Positions 864 to 60,859 of a stretch of DNA of 64,000 nt are shown piece after piece (position 1 is the first letter of the stretch; every line of letters starts with the position of its first letter). The DNA comes from Escherichia coli (GTDB lineage Bacteria; Pseudomonadota; Gammaproteobacteria; Enterobacterales; Enterobacteriaceae). The position numbers and the translations under genes are program-made. The stretch lies in assembly GCF_022846255.1 (NCBI RefSeq), contig NZ_AP025682.1; one strand, given 5' to 3'. Under the pieces are notes generated by a model. It saw nothing but the letters and a program-made list of their open reading frames with translations. It ran no database searches and was not told where the DNA came from.

Positions 864-2264
864 ATGCCACATTCCTACGATTACGATGCCATAGTAATAG
901 GTTCCGGCCCCGGCGGCGAAGGCGCTGCAATGGGCCTGGTTAAGCAAGGTGCGCGCGTCGCAGTTATCGAGCGTTATCAAAATGTTGGCGGCGGTTGCAC
1001 CCACTGGGGTACCATCCCGTCGAAAGCTCTCCGTCACGCCGTCAGCCGCATTATAGAATTTAATCAAAACCCACTATACAGCGACCATTCCCGACTGCTC
1101 CGCTCTTCTTTTGCCGATATCCTTAACCATGCCGATAACGTGATTAATCAACAAACACGTATGCGTCAGGGATTTTACGAACGTAATCATTGTGAAATAT
1201 TGCAGGGGAACGCCCGCTTTGTTGACGATCACACGCTGGCGCTGGACTGCCCGGACGGCACGGTAGAAACGCTAACTGCAGAAAAATTTGTTATTGCCTG
1301 CGGCTCTCGTCCATATCATCCAACAGATGTTGATTTCACCCATCCACGCATTTACGACAGCGACTCAATTCTTAGCATGCACCACGAACCGCGCCATGTA
1401 CTTATCTATGGTGCTGGAGTTATCGGCTGTGAATATGCGTCGATCTTCCGCGGTATGGATGTAAAAGTGGATCTGATCAACACCCGCGATCGGCTGTTGG
1501 CGTTTCTCGATCAAGAGATGTCAGATTCTCTCTCCTATCACTTCTGGAACAGTGGCGTAGTGATTCGTCACAACGAAGAGTACGAGAAGATCGAAGGCTG
1601 TGACGACGGTGTGATCATGCATCTGAAGTCAGGTAAAAAACTGAAAGCTGACTGTCTGCTCTATGCCAACGGCCGCACCGGTAATACCGATTCGCTGGCG
1701 TTACAGAACATTGGGCTGGAAACTGACAGTCGCGGACAGCTGAAGGTCAACAGCATGTATCAGACCGCACAGCCGCACGTTTACGCGGTGGGCGACGTGA
1801 TTGGTTATCCGAGCCTGGCGTCGGCGGCCTATGACCAGGGGCGCATTGCCGCGCAGGCGCTGGTGAAAGGTGAAGCCACCGCACATCTGATTGAAGATAT
1901 CCCTACCGGTATTTACACCATCCCGGAAATCAGCTCTGTGGGCAAAACCGAACAGCAGCTGACCGCGATGAAAGTGCCGTATGAAGTGGGCCGCGCCCAG
2001 TTCAAACATCTGGCACGCGCACAAATCGTTGGCATGAACGTGGGCACGCTGAAAATTTTGTTCCATCGGGAAACGAAAGAGATTCTGGGCATTCACTGCT
2101 TTGGCGAGCGCGCTGCCGAAATTATTCATATCGGTCAGGCGATTATGGAACAGAAAGGTGGCGGCAACACTATTGAGTACTTCGTCAACACCACCTTTAA
2201 CTACCCGACGATGGCGGAAGCCTATCGGGTAGCTGCGCTAAATGGCTTAAACCGCCTGTTTTAA
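864..2264 (+). CDS. sthA: Soluble pyridine nucleotide transhydrogenase (466 aa)
   Basis: ORF-track protein [24 protein letters not shown]... with FAD/NAD Rossmann motifs; length and synteny next to oxyR match E. coli SthA. Confidence 0.95.
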
Positions 2265-3164
2265 CACTTTATCGAAATGGCCATCCATTCTTGCGCGGAT
2301 GGCCTCTGCCAGCTGCTCATAGCGGCTGCGCAGCGGTGAGCCAGGACGATAAACCAGGCCAATCGTGCGGCGAGGTTCCGGCTTAATACACGGCAAATAA
2401 ACAACCCCATCGCGTTTGCGCTCCGGCGGCACAGCCAGCGCAGGCAGTAAAGTGATCCCGCTACCTGCCGCCACCATGTTACGCAGTGTCTCCAGGCTGG
2501 TCGCGCGGAAGTGTGTATCTTCATCCGCCCCGGCTTCAAAGCAGAAACCCATTGCCTGATCGCGCAAACAGTGACCATCTTCCAGCATCAGCAGTTTTTC
2601 CCCTGCCAGATCGGCCATCGGTACGCATTCGCGGTTCGCCCACGGGTGGTCTTCATAGATAGCCAGCAACATTGGCTCATCAAACAACGGCACTTCAATG
2701 AATGCTTCGCTCTCTTTCACCAGCGCGAGGATCACGCAATCGAGTTTGCCGCTGTCCAGTTGCGCCAGTAACTGGTGGGTCTGTGCTTCATGCAGATACA
2801 TTTCCAGCTTTGGAAAGGTCTGGTGCAGCATCGGGATAATATGCGGTAGCAGGTACGGTCCAACCGTGGGAATCAAACCAATATGCAGCGGCCCGGACAT
2901 CGTCTCGCCCTGCTGGCTTGCCATCTCTTTAAGGACTTTCACCTCACGCAGTACGGTACGCGCCTGATCCACCAGCAGCATTCCCGCCTGGGTGAACAAC
3001 ACTTTACGGCTGGTCCGCTCCAGCAACATCACGCCCAACTCATCTTCCAGCTTACGAATTTGCCCGCTAAGCGTCGGCTGGCTAACGTGGCAGGAATCTG
3101 CCGCACGCCGAAAATGGCGGTGTTCGGCCAATGCCACCAGGTACTCAAGATCACGAATATTCAT
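2247..3164 (-). CDS. oxyR: OxyR, LysR-family hydrogen-peroxide-responsive regulator (305 aa)
   Basis: ORF 2247..3209 trimmed to conserved start [22 protein letters not shown]...; 18-bp convergent overlap with sthA 3' end as in E. coli. Confidence 0.95.
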
Positions 3165-3259: not shown

Positions 3260-3374
3260 GAAACGGAGCGGCACCTCTTTTAACCCTTGAAGTCACTGCC
3301 CGTTTCGAGAGTTTCTCAACTCGAATAACTAAAGCCAACGTGAACTTTTGCGGATCTCCAGGATCCGCTTTTTT
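3260..3374 (+). ncRNA. oxyS: OxyS small regulatory RNA (109 nt plus U tail)
   Basis: Sequence GAAACGGAGCGGCACCTCTTTTAACCCTTGAAGTCACTGCCCGTTTCGAGAGTTTCTCAACTCGAATAACTAAAGCCAACGTGAACTTTTGCGGATCTCCAGGATCCGC followed by T8 (intrinsic terminator) read directly; matches remembered oxyS. Confidence 0.88.
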
Positions 3375-3415
3375 TTATTCTACAGGCCCACAGCAAGAGA
3401 GCCTGATAGTAACGG

Positions 3416-4699
3416 TTACTCAATCCGATCTTTGACAATAAAGAAGTAACACAGCGCCCCGGTGAACGTCACACAGGCCGCGATAACCAGCGCCAGATTA
3501 AACGAGTGTGTGGTATCCACGACCCAACCGGTTACGATCGGAGCAAAGGAAGCAAAAACAAAACTGCCAAAGTTTTGAATCCCGGCGATGGAAGCCACTT
3601 TTGTTTCTGACACCATCACCTGCACCAGCCCCCATGCAGATGTTCCCGCGAAATGCACGCAGAACAGCGCCATTGAGATAAACGCTACCGCCTGGGCTGG
3701 CGAGGAAGATTGCACGACCAGCAACGTGCCTAATGCCGACATCATCAAACCGCAGACAATCGCCGTTTTACGCGTCTTCGCCAGGTCATAGCCTTTTTTC
3801 GCCAGCCGATCGACAACAATACCGTTAACCCACATCCCGACCGCCGCCGCGAGGAAAGGAATTGCCGCCACCCAACCGGTTTTCGCCAGACTGAAACCTT
3901 GTTCGGCCTGCAAATAACCGGGTAACCACGCGATGTAGAGCCAACCGGTATAATTGACGCCAGAGAAACCTAAAATCATCCCCCAGGTTGTCCGATGCTT
4001 AAACAGCGCCAGCCACTCGCTAAATTGTAACTGTGGACGCGGTTTAACCGGCGCGGAGAGATATGTCCGTTCTTCCTCGGTCAGGACAAACTGCGCCCGG
4101 TTGCGATACCACGCGTACCAACAGATCCCAACCAGAATCCCTGCTACGCCGATGATGACAAACATCGTCCGCCAGCCCCATGCCAGTTGCATCAATACAA
4201 GAGCAGGAGGCGCGATAGCCTGACCGATAACGGTAGATGAGTTAAAAATCCCCAGCGCCGTGCCGCGTTCTTTTTGCGCATACCAGTCGGTGATCGACTT
4301 TACTCCCGCAGGCATAAATGGCGCTTCGCCAATACCCAGACCGATACGCATTAAAATAAAGTGGCTAAAAGAATTAACCATTCCTGTTAATGCCTGCATT
4401 AATGACCAGAATATTAAGCCTGCGCCTAACACTATTCGTGGGCCAAAGCGGTCTAGCAAAATACCGGAAGGAAGTTGTGAAAAACCATAAGACAGAGAAA
4501 ATGCAGAAAGCAAAACACCAAATTCGGTAGCGGATAATCCTAACTCACCACGAATTGCTTCACCTGCCACGCTCAATGACGAACGGTCGAGAAAATTAAC
4601 GATCCCCGCCATAAATAATAAAACCAGGGTCACTGTCTGAATACGACGAATCCGTTGCGGTTTATTACCCGCAACACTGGTTGACACATCAACGTCCAT
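3416..4699 (-). CDS. MFS transporter, anion:cation symporter (sugar-acid/hexuronate-type) family, 427 aa
   Basis: 12-TM-like hydrophobic profile, MFS signature region GxLLDRFGPR, resemblance to DgoT/ExuT/YjjL-type transporters; accessory relative to my memory of K-12 (oxyS directly followed by argH). Confidence 0.8.
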   Translation of the reverse strand: MDVDVSTSVAGNKPQRIRRIQTVTLVLLFMAGIVNFLDRSSLSVAGEAIRGELGLSATEFGVLLSAFSLSYGFSQLPSGILLDRFGPRIVLGAGLIFWSLMQALTGMVNSFSHFILMRIGLGIGEAPFMPAGVKSITDWYAQKERGTALGIFNSSTVIGQAIAPPALVLMQLAWGWRTMFVIIGVAGILVGICWYAWYRNRAQFVLTEEERTYLSAPVKPRPQLQFSEWLALFKHRTTWGMILGFSGVNYTGWLYIAWLPGYLQAEQGFSLAKTGWVAAIPFLAAAVGMWVNGIVVDRLAKKGYDLAKTRKTAIVCGLMMSALGTLLVVQSSSPAQAVAFISMALFCVHFAGTSAWGLVQVMVSETKVASIAGIQNFGSFVFASFAPIVTGWVVDTTHSFNLALVIAACVTFTGALCYFFIVKDRIE

Positions 4700-4765
4700 T
4701 TTTAGCTCCTTGAGCGGAATTAATCGATTTGATGAATATTCAGAAAATAATTAAGCGAACCGCTA

Positions 4766-5980
4766 TTACCAGTTCCACAATGTGCCATCTTCCAGTCGTG
4801 CGACGGGGAGATACGCCGGGTCATACGGATATTTCGCCGCCAGTTTCTCATCGAAAGAAATACCCAGCCCCGGTTCATCGCCTGGGTGCATATAACCTTC
4901 ATCGAAGCGCCAGCTGTGCGGGAAGACTTCAAGCATTTGTTCGGAATAGCCCATGTACTCCTGAACGCCAAAGTTTGGCACCCAGAGGTCAAAATGCAGC
5001 GCCGCCGCATGGCAAACAGGCGATAAATCTGAAGGGCCATGCGAACCGGTACGTACCTGATAAAGCGATGCAAAATCGGCAATCCGTCGCATCCCGGTAA
5101 TGCCGCCTGCATGGGTAATCGTCGTGCGAATATAGTCAATCAGCTGCTCTTCGATTAACTGTTTGCAGTCCCAGATACTGTTAAACACTTCACCGACCGC
5201 AATCGGCGTCACGGTATGCTGGCGAATCAGACGAAAACATTCCTGGTTCTCGGCAGGCGTCGGATCTTCCATCCAGAACAGGCGGTAATCCTCAATGCTC
5301 CTCCCAAAGCGCGCCGCTTCGATGGGGGTCAGGCGATGGTGCATGTCATGCAACAGATGTTCGTTAAAACCGAACTTATTACGCACCGCTTCAAATAACT
5401 TCGGCGTAAAATCGAGATACTTTTCTGAAGACCACAACTGCTCTTCTGGCCACAGGCCTTTGGTTGCTGGTTCATACGCCAGTCCTTTGCCCTTCGCCAG
5501 ACCATAGGTGGTTTGCATACCCGGTACACCACACTGCACACGAATCGCCTTAAAGCCCATCTGCTGGTGCTTTGCATAGTCTTCAAGGACTTCATCAATC
5601 GTCCGCCCGGTGGTGTGGCAATAAACCATCACGCCTTCACGAGAAGCGCCACCAAGCAGTTGATACAATGGCATATTTGCCGCTTTAGCTTTGATATCCC
5701 ACAACGCCATATCAATGGCAGAAATGGCCGACATCGTGACGGGACCACGTCGCCAGTAAGCTCCTTTATAAAAGAATTGCCAGATATCTTCGATACGGCT
5801 GGCATCGCGGCCAATTAATTGAGGACAAAGATGATCTTTCAGATAAGAAGCGACCGACAATTCGCGACCATTTAACGTGGCATCTCCTAATCCACAAAGT
5901 CCGCTTTCAGTGGTTATTTTAAGCGTAACGAAATTACGCCCGGGACAAGTAACAAAAACATCCACAGCAATAATTTTCAT
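4766..5980 (-). CDS. Enolase-superfamily D-mannonate dehydratase (ManD)/RspA-like sugar-acid dehydratase (~404 aa)
   Basis: ORF 4766..6040 trimmed to [43 protein letters not shown]...; strongly resembles E. coli RspA/ManD family; exact start uncertain (5980 vs 6040). Confidence 0.85.
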
Positions 5981-6383
5981 TATTGCAATCTCCTGTATTG
6001 TAAATAGACACTTCAAACTTAATTTTACGCCTACTACCATACAAGAGAGAAAAGGTGATTATTCAACCGTGATCACATTAAAAATAAAAATTTCTACCGA
6101 GGAGAAAAAACACCCTCAAAAACCACCTGAATAATTAGCCATTATCGTTAAAACAACACGTTAAATAATCACATAACAAACTCCATTAATCATTAAAAAT
6201 GAACACAGCAATAGAAATGAATTATATTCAATTAATTAAAGTATGTATTGGCTGATGTATTGAAAATATAATTTTTATGGGGAGAGTGAAGGTAAAGAAG
6301 ACGCAAGAATAAAAAGGAATGTGACAAATAATGGTTCTGGTTGGGCGTTAAATTTAAGGTCACCAGAATGCTGACAAATTTCT

Positions 6384-6445
6384 GCCTGATGCGGCGTAAA
6401 CGCCTTATCCGCCTACGAAGTGTCACACTTTGTAGGCGTGGTAAG
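6384..6445. repeat. REP (repetitive extragenic palindrome) element(s) downstream of argH
   Basis: GCCTGATGCGGCGTAAACGCCTTATCCGCCTAC plus a second partial palindrome; typical E. coli REP consensus. Confidence 0.65.
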
Positions 6446-6477
6446 CTCCCCATTTTCAGGGGAGCAATATAAACAAA

Positions 6478-7851
6478 TTACCCCAACCGCGCCTGCGCAA
6501 AAGCAATCGCCTGCGCCACCTGTTGCGGTGAGACACCGCCTTTTGCTGCACGCTTGTCGAGGCACGATTGCAGCGACAGAATCGGATAGACATCTTCGCC
6601 AATCACCTGGCTGAATTTCTGCAACTCACTGAGCGGCAGATCTTCCAACGCTTTGCCCTGACGAATGGCTTCCACCACCGCTTCACCCACAATATGGTGC
6701 GCCTCGCGGAACGGTACGCCTTTCGCCACCAGATAATCCGCCAGTTCAGTAGCGTTGGCGTAACCCTGCTGCGCCGCTTCCTGGCAACGCGGACGTTTCA
6801 CCTGAATGCCGTCCAGCACCAGCGCCGCCATATGCAGGCAGTCCAGCCAGGTATCGAGCGCGTCGAACAGACCTTCTTTGTCTTCCTGCATATCTTTGTT
6901 GTAAGCCAGCGGCAAACCTTTCAGCGTCATCATCATGCCGGTTAACGCCCCCTGCACCCGACCGCATTTACCGCGAATCAGCTCCAGCGCATCCGGGTTT
7001 TTCTTCTGCGGCATTAATGATGAACCGGAAGTCACACGGTCAGAAAGCTCCACAAACCCCGCTTCGCCGGTGTTAAAGAAAATCAGATCTTCAGCAAAAC
7101 GCGACAGATGCACCATGCCGATAGCGGCAGCAGAAAGCAGTTCCAACACATGGTCACGGTCAGAAACGCTGTCGAGACTGTTACGGGTCGCCGAAGCAAA
7201 GCCCAGCCAGCCTGCTAACTGTTCACGGTCGATTTCATAGGCCGTTCCTGCCAGTGCGCCACAACCTAGCGGGCTGACATCCAGACGCTTAAGCGCGTCC
7301 TGCAAACGGCTTTCATCACGCGCCAGCATCTCAACGTAGGCCAGGCACCAGTGAGCGAACGTCACCGGCTGGGCGCGTTGCAGGTGAGTGTAACCCGGCA
7401 TCACCGCGTCCTGATTGTTCTGCGCGGTCTCGACCAGAGCGGATTGTAACTGCCGGTTAGCCGTCAGCAACTCGCTAACGGTATCTTTGCACCACAGTTT
7501 CAGGTCAGTTGCTACCTGATCATTACGGCTACGCCCGGTATGCAGTTTTTTGCCTAACTGACCCACTTTGTCGATCAGTTTGCCTTCCACCCAGCTATGG
7601 ATATCTTCGGCGTCGCTTTCAAGGATTTGTTGTGGCCTGGCGCGAACATCTTCCAGCAGCACGTTCAGCGCCTCTTCCAGTTGCGCCTGCTCTTCTGCGG
7701 TTAACACGCCGACCGTTACCAGGGCTTTGGACCAGGCCACAGAGCCAACAATATCCTGCTCCGCCAGACGGTAATCAAAGCGCAGTGAGTCGTTGAATTG
7801 TTTGAACCGTTGATCTGCTGCCTGGGTAAAACGCCCGCCCCAAAGTGCCAT
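6478..7851 (-). CDS. argH: Argininosuccinate lyase (457 aa)
   Basis: [44 protein letters not shown]...; fumarate-lyase signature [12 protein letters not shown]. Confidence 0.96.
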
Positions 7852-15892: not shown

Positions 15893-15985
<93 letters not shown>

Positions 15986-26529: not shown

Positions 26530-26632
26530 TGCCTGATGCGCTACGCTTATCAGGCCTACGCAATCTCTGCAATATAGTAAATTTATGTACTTTTGTAGGC
26601 CGGATAAGGCGTTCACGCCGCATCCGGCACGC
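26530..26632. repeat. BIME/REP cluster downstream of gldA
   Basis: GCCTGATGCGCTACGCTTATCAGGCCTAC ... GTAGGCCGGATAAGGCGTTCACGCCGCATCCGGCA; preceded by hairpin AAACTCCCGGCTTGTCCGGGAGTTT (26495..26519). Confidence 0.7.
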
Positions 26633-33870: not shown

Positions 33871-34995
33871 ATGTCGACTCTGTTTACGATTAATGCCTGT
33901 AAAACGTTCGGTTGCCGAAATTTGGGATTGGCCTCATCGGAAGATTACAGTTGGCCAGACTATAAACTGGGTTATCCGGCACTGCACTGTCGGGCATGTG
34001 GAAGTTACCCGCCGTTGTTTGACGAACAGCAATTTCGTGACTGGTTGTCAGTTCACTTATCTACTTTTGCAACTGAGAAAGGTCATTTCTGCCCGGTATG
34101 TTATGGCACAGACATGATTTGTTATGGTCACAATCCACAGGGTTCGCAACGCATTCAATGCCGTAACTGCAAAAAAGTCTGGACGCCTAAAAAATATCAG
34201 AAAGAAATTACGCATCCCCAGGCCATTGAAACCGTTCAACTGTTCATACCCTTTCAAGGGGCCAGTGCAGTACAAAAACTGTATGTTTTAGTCAGTCTTG
34301 ACGCCACTCGTGGCAACATTCTTCATCTCTCCACGAATTATACGCAACATCAGACAGGAGACAGTCTGCGGTACAGTTACAAGGGCAACACAGAACCAAC
34401 TATGCACCATCGCGATATCGTGCAGAAGGTAGATATGCGTGAAGCGCAATTCTTGCGCCGGAGCCAGTTCGATGAAATTCAGTATGGCAGTGCTGTACTC
34501 AAGCGCAACGGTAAGGGAGCCATACTACGCCCGGTTATCACGGCACACGGGCATTTCAGAATACTGAAAATCCGCTATCCAGATGTCAAAACGCATATTA
34601 TTTCACACGAATGTTTTCTAAGAGGCGCAATTATTACAGCCTGGGCAGATCAGTTCCGCCAACAACAAGGTGAACTTTGGTTCGTAGAAGAAGAAATCAG
34701 TGACAGTAACGCTGATACGCCCTGGCATTTTAAGGGAACGACATACCATGGTTGGTGGCAAAATCAGTGGCAGCGCTGGGAGCAGGGGAATAACTGCAAG
34801 ATGGTCTGCCTACTCACGGGAGCCTGCTTAGAAAGGGGCGCAAATGTTTCTCTGGCAACCAGTCGTTGTTTTATCACATGGCTGACAGACCAACACGACT
34901 TTACCCAAAGCGCGTTATTATCCGCAGGTCGCGTAACACAAATGCTGACCTCACTGGCGTTAAAATACAATGAATCGCTCACTCCATCTTGTTAG
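33871..34995 (+). CDS. Hypothetical cytoplasmic protein with N-terminal tandem CxxC zinc ribbons (InsA-like), 374 aa; function unknown
   Basis: ATG start at 33871; four CxxC pairs in first ~100 aa (CKTFGC, CRACG, CPVCYG...QRIQCRNCKKVW); no signal peptide; long uninterrupted ORF in AT-rich island. Confidence 0.6.
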   Translation: MSTLFTINACKTFGCRNLGLASSEDYSWPDYKLGYPALHCRACGSYPPLFDEQQFRDWLSVHLSTFATEKGHFCPVCYGTDMICYGHNPQGSQRIQCRNCKKVWTPKKYQKEITHPQAIETVQLFIPFQGASAVQKLYVLVSLDATRGNILHLSTNYTQHQTGDSLRYSYKGNTEPTMHHRDIVQKVDMREAQFLRRSQFDEIQYGSAVLKRNGKGAILRPVITAHGHFRILKIRYPDVKTHIISHECFLRGAIITAWADQFRQQQGELWFVEEEISDSNADTPWHFKGTTYHGWWQNQWQRWEQGNNCKMVCLLTGACLERGANVSLATSRCFITWLTDQHDFTQSALLSAGRVTQMLTSLALKYNESLTPSC

Positions 34996-35224
34996 TCAAT
35001 ACACTCGACAAACGACCATAAATTAAGAGAGAGCACTACCTTTCATTTAATTAAATATATAAATGTATGACCGTGAAATATAATCATGGTCAATGTTTAA
35101 TTAATAACATTATTTGTTACTAAGATCACACAATACTTTTCTGAACTATGCTTACATAAAATAAGACACGATGTGTCTTTTATTTAAATAATTCAACAAA
35201 TGTAACACACCCTATCCAGGAGGG

Positions 35225-36778
35225 ATGATGAAAACTGTATTTACAACATTATCAGTCATATTCGGCGTGATATTTTCTCACAGTGTTCTAGCTCAGGACG
35301 TTACTATTTATTATACGAATGACATTCACGCACATGTCAATCCGGCAAAAATCATCGCTGTTGATAAGAACAGACTTATAGGTGGTATGGCTAATATTGC
35401 AGGCATCGTTAATGAAGCGAAGAAAAAAAGCAAAGATGTGTTTTTCTTTGATGCAGGCGACTATTTTACCGGGCCGTATATCAGCACCCTGACCAAAGGT
35501 GAAGCTATTATTGATATCATGAACACTATGCCCTTTGATGCGGTGTCTGTTGGTAATCACGAGTTCGATCACGGTGTGCCCAATATGGTGTCTCAGTTAT
35601 CAAAAGCAAAATTTCCCATTCTGCTGGGAAATATCTACTACACCGATACGAATAAACCAGTTTGGGATCATCCGTGGACCATTATCGAAAAAGATGGTTT
35701 AAAGATTGGTGTGATTGGATTGCATGGCGCATTCGCTTTCTATGATACAGTCGCGGCAAAAGCACGTGAAGGCGTAGAAGCCAGAGACGAAATTAAATAT
35801 TTAAATAAAGCACTTGCAGAATTAAAAGGTAAAGTCGACATTACCGTTTTGCTAATTCACGAAGGTGTCCCGGCGCGTCAATCAAGCTTTGGTAGTAAAG
35901 ATGTGGAGCGGCTACTACAGGCAGATATTGAGACAGCTAAAAAAGTGAATGGTGTTGATGTCTTAATTACCGGTCACGCACATGTCGGAACACCGCAACC
36001 AATAAAAGTTAATAACACATTAATTGTATCTACCGATGCATACGGCACCAACATCGGAAAACTTGTGCTTGATTACAATCCGAAAACGAAGAAAATTGAT
36101 AGTTATAATGGTGAGTTAATCACCATCTTTGCAGATCAATTTAAACCTGACACCATCGTTCAAAATACTATTGATAAATGGAGTGCAAAGCTTAACAAAA
36201 TAACACAGGAAGTTGTCGGCCATTCTCCCGTAGTTTTAACACGTGAGTATGGTAGTTCCTCTTCTACCGGCAACCTTATTCTTGATGCAATGATGGAAAA
36301 AACACCTGATGCCGTTGCCGGATTTCAAAATAGCGGTGGGATGCGAGCTGATTTTCCTAAAGGCGATATCACACTGGGAGATGTTATTAGCACATTCCCC
36401 TTTAATAATGACCTCATCGAGATGGATTTGACGGGCCGCGATCTCAAATCATTGATGACGCATGCAACCAATCTAACTAACGGTGTGTTACAAGTTTCTA
36501 AAAGTGTTGCGGTTGTCTATGACAGCAAAAAACCACTCAACCAACGGTTAATCTCTTTCACCATTAACGGCAAACCCGTGGAAGATAATCAAACATATCG
36601 TATTGCCACGCACTCCTTTTGTGCCAGTGGTGGTGACGGTTTTGAAGCATTTTTGAATGGAAAAAATGTGAAAACGATACCGGGAACAACCTCGGCGGAA
36701 TCTATCATCGATTATTTCAAAAATCACAAGCCTATCACCCCAGACTTAACTAAACGAGTCATGGACGTCGCCAAATAA
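35225..36778 (+). CDS. Secreted bifunctional metallophosphatase/5'-nucleotidase (UshA/CpdB family), paralog B, 517 aa
   Basis: Strong SD (AGGAGGG) then MMKTVFTTLSVIFGVIFSHSVLAQDVTIYYTNDIHAHV...; same motif set as paralog A (GDYFTG, GNHEFD, GHAHVG, NSGGMR, GGDGF). Confidence 0.85.
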   Translation: MMKTVFTTLSVIFGVIFSHSVLAQDVTIYYTNDIHAHVNPAKIIAVDKNRLIGGMANIAGIVNEAKKKSKDVFFFDAGDYFTGPYISTLTKGEAIIDIMNTMPFDAVSVGNHEFDHGVPNMVSQLSKAKFPILLGNIYYTDTNKPVWDHPWTIIEKDGLKIGVIGLHGAFAFYDTVAAKAREGVEARDEIKYLNKALAELKGKVDITVLLIHEGVPARQSSFGSKDVERLLQADIETAKKVNGVDVLITGHAHVGTPQPIKVNNTLIVSTDAYGTNIGKLVLDYNPKTKKIDSYNGELITIFADQFKPDTIVQNTIDKWSAKLNKITQEVVGHSPVVLTREYGSSSSTGNLILDAMMEKTPDAVAGFQNSGGMRADFPKGDITLGDVISTFPFNNDLIEMDLTGRDLKSLMTHATNLTNGVLQVSKSVAVVYDSKKPLNQRLISFTINGKPVEDNQTYRIATHSFCASGGDGFEAFLNGKNVKTIPGTTSAESIIDYFKNHKPITPDLTKRVMDVAK

Positions 36779-59907: not shown

Positions 59908-60207
59908 TCAAGCTAACGAACGCAGTGATAACTCAAAAATAATCATCTCGGCCTGGCATGAGAAGGTGAAGGCCGCATCAAGCTCAACTTGCCCTTCCAG
60001 ATCCTTAATCTTATAGGCCACGCTGGCCCCTTCATCTGCAGAGGATGCAGCGGCGGCAAGCTCTTTCAGTTTGGTCATAAAGGACTCTGCTTCTTCGCGG
60101 GTGGCAAAAAAGCGCGAAAACTTACTGGTACAGTTGTCGTTATCAATCACCGTACCGATATCAATCGCACATCCTTTAGTACTGCATTTATCTACGACAT
60201 CTTTCAT
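59908..60207 (-). CDS. yiiS: UPF0381 protein YiiS (99 aa)
   Basis: [54 protein letters not shown]... Confidence 0.88.
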
Positions 60208-60418
60208 AGGGCACCTCTGTATATTCGCCTCTCTGTCGATTACGACTTAAGAATAATGCGCCGTTAAAGGAAGAACAAACAAGTAATGATCTTATGGATT
60301 ACCATTTTTTTTGATATTGCTTAAGGTGAAGAGTTCAGAAGGATTTTCCGGGCATTGTCACTTGCATCGTGGAAATAACAATCCCGGAAAAAAATAGCGA
60401 TAAGAGATATATTAAAGG

Positions 60419-60859
60419 TTAATTACTTGATTTATTGTCGGCTTTATACTTCACATCCTGGGTATCTTTACCATATTTATTTTCGCCTTGTGTGCCAACA
60501 AACGCACCAAGATCGATAAGCATCATCACCAGAATCAATGTCGGGACAAAACGCCCCACCGCCCATTGCCAGACACCCGGTAAAATTGCCCAGTTACCCG
60601 CCAGCAGCATCCACGCCACAATCATCAGAAATGCCCATGCGCCGGAACGCCCGCGATCATGCAAGCGCTTAACGGTTACTGCCGCTGTTGGCCAAAGCAA
60701 GCACACAAGGCAAAACGCCGCGGTCTGAATATCGAGTAAATTTTTACCCGCCAGTGAGAAAAGCACCAGCATGCCTGCGAACCACAGGCCTATCCAAATC
60801 CAGAAATCACGGCGTCCAATACGCCCTTTAAATGAGAATAACCATTGCTGTATGGTCAT
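60419..60859 (-). CDS. yiiR: DUF805 inner-membrane protein YiiR (146 aa)
   Basis: MTIQQWLFSFKGRIGRRDFWIWIGLWFAGMLVLFSLAG... Confidence 0.88.
   Translation of the reverse strand: MTIQQWLFSFKGRIGRRDFWIWIGLWFAGMLVLFSLAGKNLLDIQTAAFCLVCLLWPTAAVTVKRLHDRGRSGAWAFLMIVAWMLLAGNWAILPGVWQWAVGRFVPTLILVMMLIDLGAFVGTQGENKYGKDTQDVKYKADNKSSN

Follow-up and report, generated by a model that had tools for sequence, protein, structure and literature searches.

The AT-rich tract between manD and argH in Escherichia coli: likely regulatory region of an optional, H-NS/StpA-bound sugar-acid operon

The locus considered here raises the question of what a long, extremely AT-rich and apparently gene-free tract is doing between a sugar-acid dehydratase gene and argH in Escherichia coli. 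An earlier note on the window (the whole 64-kb stretch of DNA that was analysed) had described a block of about 340 bp of very low GC content, lying between the start of the dehydratase gene and a REP element next to argH. Both the block and its placement are borne out. The GC content amounts to 30.3% over 6041-6383 and to 30.5% over the whole intergenic tract of 404 bp, and a sliding-window scan places the lowest-GC 343-bp stretch of the window at 5970-6312 (28.6% as against a mean of 51.5% with a standard deviation of 5.5%, i.e. about 4 standard deviations below), making this the compositional extreme of the window. The two AT-rich strings quoted in that description are found at 6080-6098 and 6187-6241. 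The left edge of the tract has to be corrected from 6041 to the ATG of manD (minus strand, 5980-5978), and on the right the tract ends at a REP unit (6384-6416), beyond which lies the argH stop codon (6478-6480). Other lowest-GC stretches of the window, with 30-36% GC, occur at 34986-35328, 38407-38749, 39116-39458 and 60140-60482. Among the matches listed of about 1,870 matching RefSeq records, there is no feature annotation under the tract. The tract is an unannotated case of a well-known kind, namely the ordinary regulatory spacer of an accessory operon, and it leaves current understanding unchallenged. More specifically, we consider it likely that it is the 5' regulatory region of an optional manD-MFS operon, silenced by H-NS/StpA and combining a weak promoter in its manD-proximal part with a Rho-like distal part. 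The tract and its surroundings are laid out as follows:

2247-3164, minus strand: oxyR
3260-3369, plus strand: oxyS (OxyS, RF00035), with an Rfam score of 139.5 bits
3377-6477: variable cassette, from the oxyS terminator to the argH stop, made up of the MFS gene, manD, the tract and REP units
3416-4699, minus strand: MFS transporter gene, an intact ORF of 427 aa
4766-5980, minus strand: manD
5981-6384, no strand: whole AT-rich intergenic tract, single-copy and chromosomal
6478-7851, minus strand: argH

The cassette is 3.1 kb in length and fills the gap between oxyS and argH, which in K-12, counted from the oxyS terminator to the argH stop, comprises 54 bp. ManD scores 731 bits against the NCBIfam equivalog profile (cut-off 550), and the MFS protein is related, by a profile match, to the D-galactonate transporter subfamily; PGAP names are available for both genes. 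ManD is, on the strength of its profile match, an enolase-superfamily D-mannonate dehydratase, and the operon is a two-gene sugar-acid module. The tract is carried by 1,867-1,870 of the 5,426 complete E. coli genomes (about 34%), once in each and always on the chromosome. Its site is constant, always lying between oxyS and argH, and the K-12 and O157 genomes are devoid of the cassette. Hence, the region is not native to all E. coli. The tract is 100% identical in the RefSeq record of ATCC 11775 (NZ_CP033092.2); in this record the MFS gene is flagged as a pseudogene with an internal stop, as against the intact ORF of the window, ManD differs by 2 aa, and the locus tag RS23640 is skipped between manD and argH. 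A literature search on ManD in CFT073 or on an oxyS/argH island returned nothing useful.

The note had also regarded the tract as horizontally acquired, a claim on which the divergence of the cassette genes bears. Between the window and E-93, which carries a 95%-class allele, 25 of the 28 differences in manD and 30 of the 32 in the MFS gene fall at third codon positions, and since nearly all the differences are of this type both genes are under purifying selection. The third-position divergence is 6.2% in manD and 7.0% in the MFS gene, to be compared with 7.2% in argH and 4.6% in oxyR. As the cassette thus equals argH and oxyR in third-position divergence, it is, judged by these alignments, an old presence/absence polymorphism that has been diverging in parallel with the core genome, rather than a recent import. 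Copies of the tract were found neither in phages nor in true plasmids, the two “plasmid” matches being mislabelled records of chromosome size, and a mobile-element origin was rejected on these grounds; nor is there an integrase or IS element at the cassette, apart from an IS1 in one strain. Acquisition therefore stands as far as presence or absence at a fixed site is concerned, while a recent foreign origin is contradicted by the core-like divergence and the lack of mobile copies. Homologues of ManD at 90-94% amino acid identity are widespread in Enterobacterales, and the tract is present upstream of manD in none of the 80 loci fetched from this set. Where a related MFS gene adjoins manD in the fetched non-E. 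coli loci, the gene order is reversed. A metagenome scan with a conserved 24-mer for deeper alleles that could reveal covariation turned up no class of alleles beyond those already known in E. coli.

A longer island occupies the same site in about 150 genomes. From the oxyR side, it consists of oxyR, oxyS, the MFS gene, manD, the tract, an oxyS-like relic and an FGGY kinase gene, followed by genes for a ribulose-5-phosphate 3-epimerase, an ABC transporter, a DeoR regulator and AraD, and finally by argH. Its manD shows a third-position divergence of 5.9% from that of the window, which makes it as near as E-93. The tract of the long island is 88% identical to that of the window over 5981-6184, and only 66% identical over 6185-6345. 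The tract is hence best considered in two halves, of which the one distal to manD, together with its border, contains the following:

6185-6345: distal half, unconstrained, 93% identical among short-form alleles
6200-6228, plus strand: promoter-like site TGAACA-17-TATATT, with a -35 element that varies among alleles
6240-6384, minus strand (argH/manD sense): C-rich, G-poor, unstructured stretch resembling a rut site 3' of argH
6384-6438: REP pair (BIME-like), a REP unit (6384-6416) followed by the inverted arm from the palindrome at 6410-6438
6445-6465, minus strand: GC hairpin GCTCCCC-N7-GGGGAGC, lacking a T run and placed 13 nt beyond the argH stop

The divergence of the distal half among short-form alleles is near the level of third codon positions. 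On the minus strand, the 145 nt of 6240-6384 have a C/G ratio of 3.2, which is at the 99.96th percentile in the window, with G making up 8%; the RNA fold z-score of this stretch is +0.3, i.e. it is unstructured, and its skew persists in the diverged allele with a C/G ratio of 1.6-2.2. By these features it resembles a Rho loading site: it shares with Rho-dependent terminators and their rut sites a C-rich, G-poor, unstructured and untranslated character and a position directly after a gene end, the likeness here being one of composition only. Thus, the distal 145 bp along with the REP units may end read-through from argCBH ahead of manD by Rho-dependent termination. The GC hairpin next to the argH stop is likely a 3'-end stabiliser of the argH mRNA. 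The REP pair has the core GATGCGGCGTAAACGCCTTATCCG typical of REP/BIME elements and naRNA4 (RF02564), and this core recurs at 15943-15976, 26595-26628 and other loci. The tract itself differs from such elements in that the REP sequence is confined to the border and the AT-rich part is single-copy.

With respect to coding potential, the earlier impression that the tract holds no credible ORF is corroborated on several counts. In the comparison of alleles, a third-codon-position substitution bias is absent from every tract ORF of at least 12 aa. The longest of these, an ORF of 73 aa on the minus strand (6232-6453), crosses the REP units and is disrupted in 2 of 7 other alleles; an ORF of 43 aa likewise crosses the REP units and is also disrupted in some alleles. 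A tblastx comparison of the tract with the neighbourhoods of 80 manD homologues and all fetched loci had a best E-value of 0.02, and a pseudogene remnant was rejected on this basis. A covariance-model search at a permissive E-value recovered no Rfam family at or above its threshold within 5981-6480. The sole match is naRNA4 (29.2 bits with a threshold of 59.5, E = 0.031), and it arises because of the REP pair. Hence, neither a conserved protein-coding gene nor a known small RNA was found in the ORF test, the tblastx comparison and the Rfam search. No intrinsic terminator was found inside the tract.

These observations also speak to the alternative that an unannotated small RNA or small protein is encoded inside the tract. 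For a small RNA, the plus-strand promoter-like site at 6200-6228 could supply a start and the downstream REP hairpins could protect the 3' end, with plus-strand 6235-6480 folding at z = -4.0; the locus tag missing from one RefSeq record between manD and argH would also fit. However, the -35 element of that site differs among alleles, the tract is without an intrinsic terminator, the fold z-score stems from the REP palindromes, and Rfam offers just the sub-threshold, REP-driven naRNA4 match. For a small protein, there is no ORF with a coding substitution pattern, and the longest ones are broken in some alleles. We therefore hold an encoded product of either kind to be very unlikely.

The earlier proposal that the tract is a nucleoid-protein binding region can be set against published ChIP-seq data from the strain CFT073, whose tract (NC_004431.1, 4684953-4685449) is identical to that of the window at 492 of 497 positions. 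In CFT073, oxyR is c4922 (PMC12871727), and from the gene lengths, the coordinates and this placement of oxyR, c4920 (1,215 nt) is manD and c4921 (1,284 nt) is the MFS gene. Both c4920 and c4921 are bound by H-NS as well as StpA (Hustmyer et al. 2022, PMC9765446, Data set S1 sheet 1E): the H-NS occupancy is 0.102 and 0.146, respectively, with a cut-off of 0.07, and is down to 0.027 and 0.050 in the strain with hns deleted, while the StpA occupancy is 0.084 and 0.128. The same study assigns c4921 to Class III, i.e. H-NS bound with a weak RNAP signal in the wild type, and its list of H-NS-bound genes does not include argH and oxyR (PMC9765446). These values are per-gene averages at 10-15% of the scale maximum that cover the genes rather than the tract, and c4921, the gene further from the tract, has a higher H-NS/StpA signal than c4920, so that nucleation at the tract is something we can only infer. 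As a side observation from the same data, an ops-like 12-mer, GGCGGTAGCGTT, lies inside c4921 (window 3416-4699) and shows no RfaH binding (Hustmyer et al., PMC9765446).

The tract itself has several properties consistent with such binding. It contains 9 instances of the high-affinity H-NS motif tCG(t/a)T(a/t)AATT when as many as 2 mismatches are allowed, as compared to a mean of 4.0 ± 2.0 for dinucleotide shuffles, of which 3 in 300 attain this number. With up to 1 mismatch there are 2 instances, as compared to 0.34 in the shuffles (14/300), the enrichment being modest. There are 11 A/T-tracts where about 4 would be expected per 404 bp, and the frequency of TpA steps is 0.094 as against 0.043 in the window (2.2-fold). 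When AA/TT periodicity was used to gauge curvature, no clear peak at 10-11 bp emerged in the tract. In its very low GC content, A-tracts and TpA steps, and in heading strain-variable genes, the tract is like the xenogeneic-silencing regions of CFT073 (PMC9765446), and so it is in its adjoining genes, which are listed as H-NS/StpA-bound, with a weak RNAP signal for the classed gene c4921. It differs from them in the modest occupancy of 0.10-0.15 and in that the cassette genes are of ordinary GC content and have diverged with the core genome. Taken together, the binding of the adjoining genes and the motif excess make it very probable that the tract is part of an H-NS/StpA-bound domain, and to this extent the earlier proposal holds as regards H-NS, the data being per-gene values from which we infer the state of the tract. 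H-NS/StpA filaments would use the A-tracts, TpA steps and motif-like sites of the tract, and the operon would be silent under standard growth.

The manD-proximal half is where a promoter is to be sought, and it contains the following candidate elements:

5981-6184, minus strand: manD-proximal half, candidate promoter and 5' leader
5990-5994, minus strand: Shine-Dalgarno sequence AGGAG, 9 nt upstream of the manD ATG
6036-6066, minus strand: weak sigma-70 candidate TTGAAT-19-TATGGT from a position-weight scan, with a predicted start at ~6029
6051-6022, minus strand: weak sigma-70 candidate TTCTCT-18-TAAAAT, overlapping the former, with a predicted start at ~6015
6041-6048, minus strand: anti-Shine-Dalgarno arm UCUCUUGU, predicted to pair with 5989-5996 (ACAGGAGA)
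6055-6067 and 6160-6172: 13-bp inverted repeat GTGATTATTCAAC / GTTAAATAATCAC, 12/13 complementary, with the arms 92 bp apart
6059-6080, minus strand: CRP-like 22-mer, perfect in its left half (AATGTGATC, 6079-6071) but poor in its right half
6145-6183: conserved 39-bp block, with 1 and 2 changes in two long-island alleles
6145-6154 and 6158-6167: H-NS-motif-like sites inside the 39-bp block

The conservation of these elements is pertinent to a further alternative, by which the tract is neutral AT-rich filler resulting from rearrangements at a recombination-prone site, with an incidental weak promoter and passive binding of H-NS. Between the window and E-93, the tract diverges by 5.4% in its proximal and 6.8% in its distal half, roughly the third-position rate, and this divergence of 5-7% among short-form alleles implies weak constraint within the species, as filler would show. 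The 66% identity of the distal half between the island forms, and the failure to find a strong promoter, a terminator or an RNA family, are likewise compatible with it. In the long-island allele, however, the proximal 200 bp are kept and the distal part is diverged, which is the best evidence for function: 5981-6100, for the most part, and 6145-6183 are nearly unchanged there, although the sequence on either side of the block is 35-40% diverged. Moreover, manD and the MFS gene are under purifying selection and need a promoter, and the H-NS-like motifs exceed those in composition-matched shuffles. Accordingly, we view neutral filler as unlikely and continue with the tract as the regulatory region of the manD-MFS operon.

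On the manD strand of the tract there is no strong sigma-70 promoter, a consensus scan being blank and a position-weight scan yielding weak candidates only. The proximal 200 bp would hold the weak promoter of the operon, perhaps as a class II promoter assisted by CRP. The 9-mer AATGTGATC has its only copy in the 64 kb at this place, with 0.53 expected in the whole window. The CRP-like site is centred at 6069.5, some 40.5 bp ahead of the start predicted at 6029, a spacing that would amount to class II geometry. Class II CRP-dependent promoters with a single good half-site are of the galP1-like kind. The present site shares with them a TGTGA half-site in consensus flanks, the distance of about 40.5 bp from a candidate start and a sugar-acid context; it differs in that the right half-site matches at 2 of 5 positions, the start is a predicted one, and TGTGA is disrupted in one natural allele, where it reads TGTTA. 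An informal by-eye comparison with the operator consensus sequences of KdgR, UxuR/ExuR and GntR gave no convincing palindrome. Both arms of the 13-bp inverted repeat lie in the proximal block, each beside a (T/A)ATGTGAT motif, and the repeat could constitute either paired operators or an RNA stem.

If transcribed from further upstream, the proximal half might instead act as a structured cis-regulatory leader of manD, starting upstream of ~6172 and either gating translation or attenuating transcription in response to a signal. The RNA fold of the proximal 216 nt has a minimum free energy of -49.5 kcal/mol (z = -2.9, with 0/200 shuffles as stable), which speaks in favor of such a leader. Its main stems, 6172-6160 with 6067-6055 and 6048-6041 with 5996-5989, are kept in 10 alleles, the diverged long form included, and few of the predicted pairs are broken across this set. 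Transcription could begin near 6214 from a perfect TATAAT at 6226-6221, but the -35 element of this site (AATACA) is poor. Further, there is no compensatory change in any of the 68 predicted pairs across the 10 alleles, and both arms of the stem masking the Shine-Dalgarno sequence are invariant in them and hence devoid of covariation evidence. The fold has no Rfam match, the tract is absent upstream of the 80 manD homologues from other Enterobacterales, and the inverted repeats are equally readable as DNA operators. With a start at ~6029 or ~6015, the Shine-Dalgarno-masking arm would not be transcribed. For these reasons we rate a signal-responsive structured leader as distinctly improbable, and within the favored regulatory-region model a 5' leader may mask the ribosome-binding site of manD.

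An extended version of the model would join the two halves in a two-part module operating at the RNA level, with a Rho-dependent distal insulator reinforced by H-NS and a signal-responsive anti-Shine-Dalgarno leader closed by the 13-bp stem. This is a long shot; if true, it would be a cis-regulatory RNA not described before and confined to this cassette of E. coli. The simpler regulatory region, with its H-NS/StpA-bound sequence, weak proximal promoter and Rho-like distal part, shows how a sugar-acid uptake and dehydration module found in one E. coli genome out of three, uropathogenic B2 strains among them, is probably silenced and insulated from the arginine operon.

The final question concerns the origin of the site itself. 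The gap between oxyS and argH occurs in at least three states in E. coli: empty, as in K-12; with manD and the MFS gene; and with these two plus a nine-gene sugar cluster. The loci behind this comparison and that with Citrobacter amalonaticus below are the window at 3377-6477 and the fetched loci L004, L005, L092 and L094. The oxyS-like relic of the long form is located at 4123-4245 on the plus strand of L004, from E. coli WP3-W18-ESBL-08, and L092 has one too. In L004, it lies between the tract and the stop codon of the FGGY kinase gene; about 20 nt are missing from its 5' end, and its terminator stem is degraded. Its score against the Rfam OxyS model is 35.5 bits (threshold 75, E = 8e-5), and its local alignment score is 102 as against 17.5 ± 2.1 for shuffles. 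Its sequence is of the Escherichia type and not of the Citrobacter type. In Citrobacter amalonaticus, the same site is occupied by the sugar cluster alone, in the order argH-aldolase-DeoR-ABC transporter-epimerase-FGGY kinase-oxyS-oxyR, with an oxyS scoring 95 bits and an FGGY kinase gene convergent with it. This layout and the relic together suggest that the latter marks an older position of oxyS before the oxyS-MFS-manD-tract segment joined; hence, the relic is probably the fossil of an oxyS that stood there prior to the arrival of the manD segment. The K-12 gap is thereby recast as a multi-state cassette site, one state of which has a fossil oxyS, a point of use for pangenome annotation and for the study of transcription flanking oxyS.

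In the window, the spot equivalent to the relic is taken up by 39 bp (6346-6384) and the REP units, the native oxyS bounding the other side of the cassette. The further suggestion in the earlier note, that the block might be the remnant of the original junction of the insertion, has something to it for the locus, where the relic of the long form marks such a fossil junction, but is not demonstrable in the sequence of the window. Aligned with the native oxyR-oxyS region, the distal tract of the window reaches a score of 19, which is at the level of shuffles (16.2 ± 2.0, with 33/300 as good), so that in contrast to the long form it has no significant similarity to oxyS; a comparison of the distal tract with the empty site of K-12 likewise gave no significant similarity. 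A likeness to oxyS perceived by eye, with 6318-6345 as the -10 region and 6346-6384 as the 5' part, was rejected because the alignment is no better than that of shuffles. The same result weighs against the tract being a regulator gene or a second oxyS locus that has since eroded. That a 5'-truncated oxyS-like relic stands directly beyond the tract in the long island, at a site which is a hot spot for cassettes, would be in keeping with decay of this kind, but the tblastx comparison with the manD neighbourhoods was blank, and the GC content of 30% is far below that of any flanking gene. We deem such an origin extremely unlikely. A genome with a 51-nt tract (H100) was also considered as evidence on the junction and rejected, the shortening being an IS1-mediated deletion that is uninformative in this regard. 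In LP5-1 (L091), an IS1 insertion has deleted manD together with the 5' end of the MFS gene and the bulk of the tract, of which only the final 51 nt remain beside the REP sequence.
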